In this document: positions 109 through 52,715 of the stretch, piece after piece | Layout of the letters: every line of letters begins with the position of its first letter | How positions within the stretch are numbered: the first letter of the stretch is position 1 | Virus record (IMG/VR): IMGVR_UViG_3300020577_003668 | Coordinates: 41,546 to 105,545 of that record | Direction: 5' to 3' (one strand) | Origin: a virus | Lineage: Duplodnaviria > Caudoviricetes | DNA length: 64,000 nucleotides | Made by a program: the position numbers and the translations under genes | Notes under the pieces: model-generated | Databases searched by the model: none | What the model saw: only the letters and a program-made list of their open reading frames with translations | What the model was told of the DNA's origin: nothing

Positions 109-184
109 GCCCTGTTCGACTTCAGGTTGAGGTCAACGTCCTTTCAAGTCGTGCAGATGGGTTCGATTCCCATACAGGGTACCA
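109..184 (+). tRNA. tRNA-Glu(UUC)
   Basis: Acceptor gccctgt/acagggt + ACCA; anticodon loop CT-TTC-AA; T arm atggg-ttcgatt-cccat; one U-U mismatch in the anticodon stem. Confidence 0.92.
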
Positions 185-185
185 T

Positions 186-284
186 TCCTCTGATGAGTCC
201 ATGCAAGTTGGACGAAATCCTAGCGGCCCCAGGCAGGCCTCCTGATCCTTCCCAGGATCAACCTGCCCGGAGCTAGGATCAGGA
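186..284 (+). ncRNA. Type I hammerhead ribozyme
   Basis: Stem I tcct(186-189)/agga(281-284); core CTGATGA(190-196); stem II gtcc/ggac; GAAA(214-217); stem III tcctagc/gctagga; AUC cleavage triplet ending at C280. Confidence 0.9.
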
Positions 285-760
285 TATTCATACATATTGA
301 TGCTACGGCTGGCGTATGTACGAAATCTACTCGCGACCCAGAGTATAAATATGGTTAGTGTGCACACTATAAATGCCGGCCTGTGCCGTGAACACAAGGA
401 CCTAATATCCTGCTCGTGGGACTAGGTAGCGATACACGAGCGTTAGCCTACTCAGTACGGACGCTAGCAGTAGAGGTGAAGTTTAGAAGCCGAATAGGGT
501 GAGAAGCCCTTATTAGAAATAATGTACGCGTGTGTGCATTTATTGCCTTGAATGTATAGTTTTGCAAGACTCTACAGCCAACTATTATTTCTAGCAAAAT
601 CCTGAGCAGAGGTTTGATCACCCGAGCAATATGGTGGGACACCAGGGCCCTTGCACCTGGCTAGTACGAGTAATTTACTATTCCAACGTATCTAGTAACA
701 AAATCGGTGGTACGATTTACAGCCCCTGCAGCAGAAATGCTCAGGGGCTGCTTTCATTCG
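281..760 (+). ncRNA. Putative large structured ncRNA of unknown family
   Basis: No credible ORF; many hairpins (gctcgtg/cacgagc, aataggg/cccttatt, ccagg/cctgg, cagcccctg/caggggctg); starts at the ribozyme cleavage site. Confidence 0.45.
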
Positions 761-8376: not shown

Positions 8377-8456
8377 ACGACTGTACCTCAACGCTCTTCT
8401 AAAGCGTAGCAGAGTAAGTGGAGTCAATGTAGGTTCGAATCCTATCAGTCGTGCCA
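8377..8456 (+). tRNA. Atypical tRNA-Arg(UCU)-like RNA (no D arm before the anticodon arm)
   Basis: Acceptor acgactg/cagtcgt + GCCA; ASL acgct-CTTCTAA-agcgt only 7 nt after the acceptor; T arm gtagg-ttcgaat-cctat. Confidence 0.8.
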
Positions 8457-19134: not shown

Positions 19135-19209
19135 TGCCGGTAAATCGACTGTATCAGATACTTGGCTTTGACCCAAGGTAAGTAGGTTAGATTCCTACAC
19201 CGGCTGCCA
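19135..19209 (+). tRNA. tRNA-Gln(UUG), atypical D arm
   Basis: tgccggt/accggct + GCCA; cttgg-CTTTGAC-ccaag. Confidence 0.85.
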
Positions 19210-22369: not shown

Positions 22370-22704
22370 GATTGTCGTAATTCGGATCAAGCAGATGTGG
22401 GCCAGACGGGGCTTCGCCGCCCCCACCTCCACCAGTTAGTATAGAGTATAGATGCGCATCTAGTAATAGGCTAAGACCTAACAGAAATGTTCTCTGTACT
22501 AACTAATGGGGGTGAATATGTTTTCGATGGCGCAAATAAGTGAGATACGCGACACGGTAGGCGATGACCGTTAATCAAGCAAAACCTTTAAATGCAGCAA
22601 ACGATGCATACTTCGGAGAAGAACGCCTAGCGGCGTAATCCCGATGTAGGAGCTATCCTATATCAAACAAAATAGTTGGAGCGGCCCTGTCCATAAACAG
22701 GGCT
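22370..22704 (+). ncRNA. ssrA: Permuted two-piece tmRNA
   Basis: Acceptor piece ends cacctcc-A-CCA (22434); hairpin spacer; coding piece starts GGGGGTG (22508) with G3-U70; tag AANDAYFGEERLAA* at 22594-22638. Confidence 0.92.
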
Positions 22705-51540: not shown

Positions 51541-52715
51541 TAACAAAATTTAGACTTGAAATTTTTCAACAACTGTTATATAATTATTATACTGGTATAA
51601 AAATACAGGAATAATAAAATGATAGATGTAGAAAAAGTATTAAATGAATATGGTATTGACAAGGCTAGAGACCTATTTTTAAGAGAAGGATATACTCTTA
51701 CTCAGTTTCATTTAGAAACTAAATTAAGTACTAGTAAAAATAGAACTTCGCAGAGAGTGTATGAAGAAGTATATAGAATACTCGGTATTACCGAGATTCC
51801 TTATAAAGAAGATACACAGCCTGTTAGAAAATTTAAATTAGAATTTGATAGAGTCTCCGGCAAGTACTGGGAGTCTGACTATATAGTAGAGGTTCTACTA
51901 GATAAGCTACAAAATCCAATACTTAATAAGGCGGAGAATAGAGAGAGATACGTAATAGGTTTCCCTAAACACCCTAATTCGGATCCTACGTCTAATCAAA
52001 TTAAAGCACATATTGTTCAATGGGAAATATTAAATGAACAATATGTGCCTAGTAATCATTGGGTAATACCCGTAGATGATGATTATACTAACTTAGATAT
52101 GGATAACTGGGTTTTGGTAAATACGACCGAATTTAAGTCAGATAGATTTACCAGTGAAGGTAACCCTTCATATAAGCACGGAAAATCAGGAAGACATAAG
52201 TTAGGCGGCTGGGCGTTAATTAGTAAAAATAGTATTAATAAGCATAGATTCTGTACAAGATGTAATACAGATAAAGGTTTAATAGTGCATCATATTATTA
52301 ACTATCATCTATTTACTAATCCCATGGAAGCGCATAATATAGATAATTTATTAGTATTATGCCAAAGTTGTCATGCCAAAATACATCTAACTAATCTAAA
52401 TATAAAGGCCCTTATTGAGGAAACTCAATATAGCAAATTACTTAAATTGCTGGAAACTCTCAAGAGCCAAGTTCCAGACTCCATGAAGGAAACTTACGTG
52501 GACGTAGAAAAGCAACTTGGACTAACAGACAATCAGCAGCCAAGCACCTAAAGAAAAGTATCTAAGGTGAAGGTTCAACGACTATCCATTTATGGAGTAG
52601 GACCGAAGACGGTTCGAAAAAGGTAATACCCTATTAATTATGGGTAATGATATAGTCTGAGCTATATAGAAATATATAGAGAGAATACGGAATCGGTATT
52701 CTCGTAACATAACTG
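51541..52715 (+). mobile_element. Group I intron in nrdJ
   Basis: Exon ends in U, intron ends in G; P aaattgctggaa, Q aatcagcagcc, R gttcaacgacta, S atgatatagtct; splicing restores AVTA|IKPEGT. Confidence 0.93.
51619..52551 (+). CDS. Intron-encoded HNH endonuclease
   Basis: CTRC..VHHI..NLLVLCQSCHAKIH; the 3' end runs through the P and Q elements. Confidence 0.9.
   Translation: MIDVEKVLNEYGIDKARDLFLREGYTLTQFHLETKLSTSKNRTSQRVYEEVYRILGITEIPYKEDTQPVRKFKLEFDRVSGKYWESDYIVEVLLDKLQNPILNKAENRERYVIGFPKHPNSDPTSNQIKAHIVQWEILNEQYVPSNHWVIPVDDDYTNLDMDNWVLVNTTEFKSDRFTSEGNPSYKHGKSGRHKLGGWALISKNSINKHRFCTRCNTDKGLIVHHIINYHLFTNPMEAHNIDNLLVLCQSCHAKIHLTNLNIKALIEETQYSKLLKLLETLKSQVPDSMKETYVDVEKQLGLTDNQQPST

Follow-up and report, generated by a model that had tools for sequence, protein, structure and literature searches.

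The tRNA-Glu locus

The DNA analyzed here (the window) is a 64-kb stretch, bases 41546–105545, of a complete 105,545-bp phage genome, an IMG/VR virus record. The phage is an uncultured, distant T5-like virus, the DNA polymerase of which is 47% identical to that of Vibrio Demerecviridae, its nearest cultured relatives by this protein; it, or relatives almost identical to it, have been sampled from wastewater, activated sludge, and rivers. The locus consists of a tRNA-Glu gene, a hammerhead ribozyme motif, and an ORF-free stretch. Its features, with positions counted from the first base of the window, are as follows.

109..184, plus strand: tRNA-Glu (UUC) with an encoded CCA at 182–184 (ARAGORN; 40.1 bits with the Rfam tRNA model)
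186–284, plus strand: complete type I hammerhead (sequence; descriptor match)
186..189, plus strand: 5' strand of stem I, UCCU, pairing with 281–284 (descriptor; covariation)
190..196, plus strand: catalytic core bases C3 U4 G5 A6 U7 G8 A9 (CUGAUGA) (sequence)
197..213, plus strand: stem II (197–201/209–213) with the G10.1-C11.1 closing pair (G197-C213) and the loop UGCAAGU at 202–208 (fold; covariation)
214..216, plus strand: catalytic core bases G12 A13 A14 (GAA) (sequence)
217..224, plus strand: 5' strand of stem III, first base A15.1, pairing with 272–279 (fold; descriptor; covariation)
225..271, plus strand: stem III extension, 47 nt (fold)
272..280, plus strand: 3' strand of stem III (272–279; U16.1 is 279) and cleavage nucleotide C17 (280) (descriptor)
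281..284, plus strand: 3' strand of stem I, AGGA, the predicted first bases of the 3' cleavage product (descriptor; covariation)
281..760, plus strand: ORF-free RNA, predicted to be released with a 5'-OH (no credible ORF; comparison with locus L081; putative extent)
721–752, plus strand: terminator-like hairpin followed by GCUUUCAUU (putative terminator)

Identification of the hammerhead

The initial annotation had described a complete type I hammerhead that starts 1 nt past the CCA of the tRNA. When the motif at 186–284 was verified base by base, the core and all three stems were found as described, and the sequence and ARAGORN agreed on the position of the CCA, which leaves U185 as the single linker base between the tRNA and the hammerhead. 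All core bases are canonical, and H17 is C, not G. The helix order is I-II-III-I with stem I open, as judged from the descriptor, the RNAalifold consensus, and the pair counts. The A15.1-U16.1 pair corresponds to A217-U279, and the predicted scissile bond lies between 280 and 281, in agreement with the earlier assignment of cleavage to C280, which is C17 in the descriptor. By its sequence, the segment 186–284 is a genuine hammerhead of the active type.

A search pattern consisting of the core and stem II alone matched the window once, yet it was also present in 15 of 100 shuffles; a full descriptor, comprising the core, the three stems, the A15.1-U16.1 pair, and H17, was therefore written. In its loose form (at least 4, 3, and 4 bp for stems I, II, and III, respectively), the descriptor gave a single match on the two strands of the real genome, and 4 of 200 dinucleotide shuffles contained any match. 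The strict form, set to the observed stem lengths (at least 4, 5, and 8 bp), gave one match in the real genome of 105.5 kb, and a match appeared in 1 of 1000 shuffles. The hammerhead motif is not a chance occurrence.

An Infernal search with hammerhead models, which the initial annotation had proposed as a check, did not reach the Rfam cut-offs and gave a sub-threshold match to Hammerhead_3. The window hammerhead scored 21 bits (E 0.15) with Hammerhead_3 (RF00008), the cut-off of which is 48.5, and 10.8 bits with Hammerhead_1 (RF00163) against a cut-off of 34. At the gathering thresholds, neither the window nor any of 31 related loci yielded a hammerhead in Rfam, and the permissive mode returned sub-threshold Hammerhead_3 matches only. 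None of the relatives is recognized by the models, not even the cousins that have a short stem III and are plainly hammerheads, because the models cannot span the stem III insert and because the cut-offs are high. The score below the cut-off is thus a weakness of the models, and on every criterion that can be tested on sequence, other than the Rfam score, the element is a member of the hammerhead class. The whole subfamily is missed by standard Rfam scans, and virome counts of hammerheads that carry large stem inserts are probably too low.

Relatives and covariation

Viral contigs were scanned with two patterns. The first, a tRNA T-loop followed by a hammerhead core, revealed type I hammerheads directly behind tRNAs in the unrelated phages L005, L013, L016, L017, and L024. 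It also identified L006, L008, and L009, which are syntenic with the window (neighbor proteins 34–71% identical) and carry tRNA-Glu(UUC) and a hammerhead at the same place, with an insert of ~47 nt and stems of different sequence. The second pattern was keyed on the conserved loop II and yielded ~25 distinct hammerheads, many of them on contigs of ~100 kb, in which stem III is extended by 39–54 nt.

When 26 relatives were folded jointly with RNAalifold, exactly the three hammerhead stems were obtained, and 15 of the 17 pairs had changed on both sides in at least one sequence. In alignment A2 (15 sequences, MAFFT-based), the helices I, II, P3, P3a, and P3b were paired in 89.7% of cases, as compared with 32–43% in controls with slid partners, and the covariation score was 0.47 versus 0.06–0.12 after sliding. 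A covariance model (R1) built from A2 gave the window hammerhead 95 bits and found no second copy in the 64-kb window; the phage genome has one hammerhead copy, as has a relative that is 98% complete. In alignment A3, which contains 61 hammerheads and was fitted to R1 and is therefore biased toward the structure, 93.6% of the cells pair (31–40% when slid), and 30 of 32 pairs have changed on both sides: 3/3 in stem I, 4/5 in stem II, 8/9 in stem III, 10/10 in P3a, and 5/5 in P3b.

The G-C closing pair of stem II and the A15.1-U16.1 pair are invariant in the relatives, and H17 is C or A throughout. G12, A13, and A14 are likewise invariant in A1 and A2, in part since the search pattern demanded them. 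The core has been kept in related phages, a condition on which the initial annotation had made its reading depend; L228 departs from it at N7 alone. This relative was found by a tRNA-Glu D-arm pattern that is blind to hammerheads, and it carries the same ribozyme. N7 is the sole core position that is free to vary. Another relative, L081, is 80–93% identical, depending on the stretch, and ~80% identical over the hammerhead locus; the core and the whole insert are kept there, and all of stem II and one pair of stem III have been swapped compensatorily.

Loop II (UGCAA) and the flanks of stem I are conserved across the family, in which stem I measures 3–5 bp. A tertiary contact between stem I and loop II is the usual source of fast cleavage by natural hammerheads at cellular Mg2+, and ~40% of natural hammerheads use a pseudoknot as this brace (PMC3088659). 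No covariation indicative of a stem I-loop II pseudoknot or loop contact was seen when loop II was compared with the stem I tails in the A1 and A2 alignments. The 3' flank of the window copy is AUAUU and differs from the YGAA that is conserved in the family.

These observations bear on the explanation that the motif resembles a hammerhead by chance or is a relic, inactive and today without a function. The missed Rfam cut-offs, the minimal stem I, and the deviating flank are what such a relic might display. It is nevertheless highly improbable, as the core is fully intact, a match arises in 1 of 1000 shuffled genomes, every helix shows compensatory changes among ~25 relatives, and the position is kept in syntenic phages.

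Among cultured phages, a blastn search with 1–1500 against 50,697 phage records gave no match, and R1 found no copy in T5, Vibrio phage pVp-1, or AG74. The neighboring 323-aa protein used as a query retrieved no related loci. A pattern scan of bacterial and archaeal sequences returned at least 120 stretches; the pattern was too loose to be informative on prophages, and no hammerhead core was present among the matches listed.

Hammerhead arrays were also seen. Nine hammerheads lie within ~7 kb of one viral contig (L060 5202–11951), and smaller arrays are found in L126 (4), L109 (3), L072 (3), and L130 (3). In all of these, stem III is short and loop II is again UGCAA.

The stem III extension

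The structured insert of ~47 nt in stem III, together with both helices named in the initial annotation, was recovered when 225–271 was refolded. The fold consists of a 2-bp helix (227–228/269–270), P3a (GGCAGG/CCUGCC, 232–237/262–267), a 5-nt bulge (238–242), and P3b (UGAUCCU/AGGAUCA, 243–249/254–260) capped by UCCC (250–253). An extension of similar size and layout is found in ~24 relatives, and the apical loop reads UUCCCA in most of them. According to the individual folds of most members, the family plan is P3 of 8–9 bp, an asymmetric internal loop, P3a of 6–10 bp, a 5'-side bulge, P3b of 5–7 bp, and a cap loop containing UUCCCA. The bulge motif is UGCG/UGCA in most members and CCUCC in the window phage.

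Since the plan and the letters of the loop are conserved and the helices covary, the extension must be under selection. It is a clade-specific add-on that could serve as a folding aid, as a tertiary or protein contact, or as a stable 3' hairpin on the trailer. In a comparison by eye, no consistent complement of the UUCCCA loop was seen in the tRNA T-arm, the flanks, or the downstream RNA.

In the window phage and L081, 240–249 in the insert can also pair perfectly, over 10 bp, with 275–284 in the 3' strands of stem III and stem I; this alternative pairing was not seen in L084, the one more distant relative checked. In folding terms, this pairing could compete with the active fold and trap the ribozyme in an inactive one.

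An alternative is that the hammerhead is a device whose cut is regulated or whose ends are passed on. The extension would, in a first version, bind a protein or ligand, or fold onto loop II, and so time the cut; in another, the 5'-OH and cyclic-phosphate ends would feed RtcB-type joining or circularization. The size and layout of the extension, its UUCCCA loop, and its UGCG/UGCA bulge, conserved in most members, exceed what a spacer would need, and the conserved UGCAA loop II faces a stem I that is too short to be its usual tertiary partner. However, the bulge motif is not kept in the window phage, no covarying long-range pairing was found, neither RtcB nor an Rnl2-type RNA ligase was found encoded in the phage genome, and no second ribozyme flanks the downstream RNA, so that circularization would have no partner site. 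We therefore consider such a device unlikely.

Upstream partner and genomic setting

A tRNA-Glu is the upstream partner in 11 of the 26 family members, directly adjacent in eight and at a distance of 95 nt in three. Many other members have no tRNA within 1.5 kb and carry instead a conserved RNA of ~70 nt that forms a three-way junction. Conversely, of 97 distinct phage tRNA-Glu genes that have this D-arm, only five are followed by the hammerhead, which is therefore not a general feature of tRNA-Glu.

The ~70-nt RNA lies directly before the hammerhead at L026 5450–5528, L121 10348–10426, and six more loci (A4). It is composed of GGYG, UUAUGAG, a variable hairpin, AUAACAACUURAU, and a hairpin with a CGAA..CUCUA loop; 10 of its 21 pairs covary, Rfam has no entry for it, and the genome of the window phage lacks it.

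Two further observations were made around tRNA-Glu genes. In L141–L255, other conserved sequences are found repeatedly right after phage tRNA-Glu genes, CCAGTTTTAGGATAC...CAGCAA and CCATATTAAAACAYATT being examples; they are possible further trailer elements or ribozymes. Just upstream of the window (L002 1077–1310), there are two tandem units of ~110 nt that start with GGGTGGACAGCGGT and end with CGTCAGCCC; they differ in their internal hairpins and are located behind promoter-like TATAAT boxes, upstream of the tRNA-Glu.

Another reading is that the hammerhead serves the maturation of tRNA-Glu, ending the precursor without reliance on a terminator, with the downstream RNA being incidental. 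In that case, loss of the 4-bp stem I would expose the single-stranded linker past the CCA to cutting of the host RNase E or RNase Z type. The start of the ribozyme 1 nt past the CCA, the tRNA-Glu partner in 11 of 26 members, and the tRNA-linked hammerheads of the unrelated phages found in the first scan are all compatible with this, and phage theta ribozymes have been proposed to process tRNA trailers (PMC10879173). On the other hand, the predicted cut lies 96 nt past the CCA, so that the tRNA, far from being trimmed, would carry a stable folded trailer that ends in a cyclic phosphate, and in the many members without a tRNA within 1.5 kb the hammerhead and the downstream RNA have both been retained. 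For trimming, moreover, a type III arrangement would be far better suited, as follows from the established topology of hammerheads. A role in tRNA-Glu maturation is thus improbable.

In two wastewater metatranscriptomes, the tRNA, the ribozyme, and the downstream region are all represented among the contigs from RNA libraries. Four RNA-library runs were compared with the locus; as these are contigs, they are uninformative on RNA ends or strand, and a stretch over the convergent genes that the RNA contigs leave uncovered is not evidence. Contig breaks near 280–285 (L002 1671, 1685, and 1686) represent strain variation rather than RNA ends, because the contigs continue into unlike sequence.

The downstream RNA

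Comparison of 281–760 with L081 showed that perfectly conserved blocks alternate with hairpins that cannot be aligned, and at least one of these hairpins has been rebuilt compensatorily in L081, as read from the alignment by eye. A two-sequence fold contained eight compensatory pairs, a weak indication of structure. In every family member, 0.6–1 kb with no credible plus-strand ORFs lies behind the hammerhead, and in many of the longer loci this stretch is followed by convergent genes for proteins of ~110 aa and ~300 aa. The ORF-poor RNA with shared motifs that the relatives have kept measures 0.5–0.7 kb. The 110-aa protein of the window matches a DNA-binding PHROG.

In most members, the RNA past the cut opens with the conserved AGGAYGAAAACC. 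GAAAUGAGUAA is another shared motif, as is a 30-nt block that terminates in AAAAUGGUCUU; 500–720 nt downstream of the hammerhead, the relatives have a U-rich block that is likewise conserved. The downstream RNA of the window phage aligns with the main family in short motifs only, and when 285–1310 was searched with nhmmer against all fetched loci, L081 was the only hit apart from a weak match in L095. We also looked for pairing partners of the released 5' end. In the window phage, AGGAUAUU can pair with 404–411 and AGGAU with 598–602; both pairings were rejected, as neither is kept across the family. The sole recurrent partner found was a U-rich block, probably the tail of a terminator.

The segment 281–760 appears to be an undescribed large phage RNA and has no match in Rfam. 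The covariance models of GOLLD and ROOL, even in permissive mode, matched neither the window nor the relatives, and the downstream RNA was thus rejected as a member of either family.

The region beyond the putative terminator has some features of its own. The highest contig depth in the two wastewater RNA libraries is found at 778–1140 (L002 2179–2541), the segment 840–1310 is almost identical in L081, leftward promoter-like sites are present at 1270–1242 and 836–808, and a two-way terminator at 1286–1311. The 778–1140 region may represent a second noncoding RNA, possibly on the minus strand. A 17-nt repeat occurs at 79–95 (GCAAGTCTGTTTTCTAC), just before the tRNA-Glu, and at 760–776 (GCGAGTCTCTTTTCTAC), just after the 721–752 hairpin; its core, AAGTCTGTTT, is also present in L081 and L066, and the repeat may mark the boundary of a unit or act as a signal for processing.

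Proposed role of the hammerhead

The reading that we favor, with a probability of roughly 60%, is that the type I hammerhead forms part of one RNA with the upstream tRNA-Glu and a structured noncoding RNA of ~480 nt (281 to ~760), and that its cut frees the downstream RNA. The motif, its non-random occurrence, its conservation and covariation, its single copy per genome, and its constant association with the downstream RNA are established by the comparisons, and the cleavage itself, the chemistry of the ends, the promoter, the co-transcription of the three parts, and the purpose of the arrangement are inferred.

The three-way junction would fold during transcription and cut between C280 and A281, thereby separating two RNAs. 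The downstream RNA would begin at A281 with a 5'-hydroxyl and four bases derived from the ribozyme, and the tRNA-Glu would retain all 96 nt of the ribozyme as a 3' trailer, closed by a 2',3'-cyclic phosphate, that host nucleases would then have to strip. With its 4 bp, stem I would permit the products to depart after the cut. In the type I topology, nearly all of the ribozyme lies 5' of the cleavage site (PMC3088659; this is also established knowledge). Because a type I hammerhead in this way retains nearly its whole sequence on the 5' product, the tRNA would bear a 96-nt structured trailer and the downstream RNA would have a clean 5'-OH. Since the hammerhead and the ORF-poor RNA are constant and the upstream element varies, the downstream RNA is most likely the one to which the ribozyme belongs. 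The same two arguments, topology and a constant downstream but variable upstream partner, speak for the earlier suggestion that the tRNA would not be trimmed and that a 5'-OH end would be set for the downstream ORF-free RNA. Limits on the proposal are set by the 4-bp stem I and by the departure of the window 3' flank from YGAA. On the evidence of the sequence comparisons, it is plausible that the hammerhead acts as the 5'-end maker of a conserved phage noncoding RNA.

A joint reading would combine this role with the structure of the extension. The extension would bend at the hinge provided by its internal loop and place P3b and the UUCCCA loop beside stem II and the UGCAA loop, bracing the active site in place of a distal stem I, and the ribozyme would be dedicated to making the 5' ends of phage noncoding RNAs of 0.5–0.7 kb, a new class that travels with tRNA-like RNAs. 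Taken as a whole, this combination is quite unlikely; if it were true, the stem III brace would be a new way to build a fast hammerhead.

Hammerheads are the best-studied small ribozymes, and the jobs of the thousands of them in bacteria and phages are mostly unknown. The context of the family suggests a job that can be tested, as a single-copy, syntenic ribozyme is always placed before the same long noncoding RNA and often behind a tRNA. If cleavage does take place, this would be a natural hammerhead serving as a 5'-end generator in a noncoding RNA operon of a DNA phage and a counterpart to the theta ribozymes, whose action is on the opposite side of phage tRNAs. It would then be possible to dissect the conserved stem III domain of 45–50 nt with regard to folding, protein binding, and regulation.

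Comparison with known systems

The window hammerhead shares the 13-base core, the junction, and the U16.1-H17 rule with bacterial and phage type I hammerheads (RF00163 and clan; Perreault et al. 2011, PMC3088659), and likewise has an open stem I and an intergenic phage setting. Unlike these (PMC3088659), the window family has a covarying stem III extension of 39–54 nt and no evident contact between stem I and loop II, and it is present as a single copy at a fixed syntenic place, with a folded RNA before it and a long noncoding RNA after it. Judged by sequence, the stem III domain, the lack of an evident stem I-loop II contact, and the fixed place in a noncoding RNA operon set it apart from the type I hammerheads described. 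Loop II (UGCAA) and a short stem I are common to the window hammerhead and the phage hammerheads with a short stem III, some of which occur in arrays of up to nine.

The placement of the ribozyme resembles that of engineered 5' cassettes, in which a type I hammerhead precedes an RNA of interest and gives it a defined 5'-OH start. The window hammerhead differs from these in being natural, conserved in a clade, and equipped with an elaborate stem III.

HDV-like ribozymes cut at their own 5' end. The view of the initial annotation that the known phage tRNA-trailer ribozymes are HDV-like agrees with the literature, in which theta ribozymes are proposed to process the 3' trailers of tRNAs (PMC10879173) and in which theta/HDV-like ribozymes were the only phage tRNA-trailer ribozymes that we found described. 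Theta ribozymes and the window hammerhead are both self-cleaving classes situated directly 3' of a phage tRNA gene (PMC10879173), and the theta paper nowhere mentions hammerheads (Kienbeck et al. 2024, PMC10879173). They differ in several respects: theta ribozymes form a nested double pseudoknot and are proposed to process the tRNA trailer (PMC10879173), whereas the window hammerhead is predicted to cut at its own 3' end and to stay on the tRNA. Theta ribozymes were reported in gut phages and often with suppressor tRNAs (PMC10879173), and the window hammerhead in a T5-like wastewater phage with an ordinary tRNA-Glu. An HDV-like or theta identity of the element itself was rejected, as the fold is that of a hammerhead and no HDV-family match was obtained in 1–1200 at E values up to 10. 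In the full-text literature, subscription journals excepted, we found no description of hammerheads in DNA phages that are linked to a tRNA or extended in stem III.

Like the downstream RNA, GOLLD and ROOL are large, ORF-free, and structured, adjoin phage tRNAs, and are possibly co-transcribed with them (Weinberg et al. 2017, PMC5737381). The paper on these RNAs links neither family to a hammerhead (PMC5737381).

Elsewhere in the window, we noted a permuted tmRNA at 22373–22638 (96.7 bits), a group I intron at 52387–52679 (79.6 bits), and matches to the tRNA model at 8377–8453 and 19135–19206 that were not called by ARAGORN.
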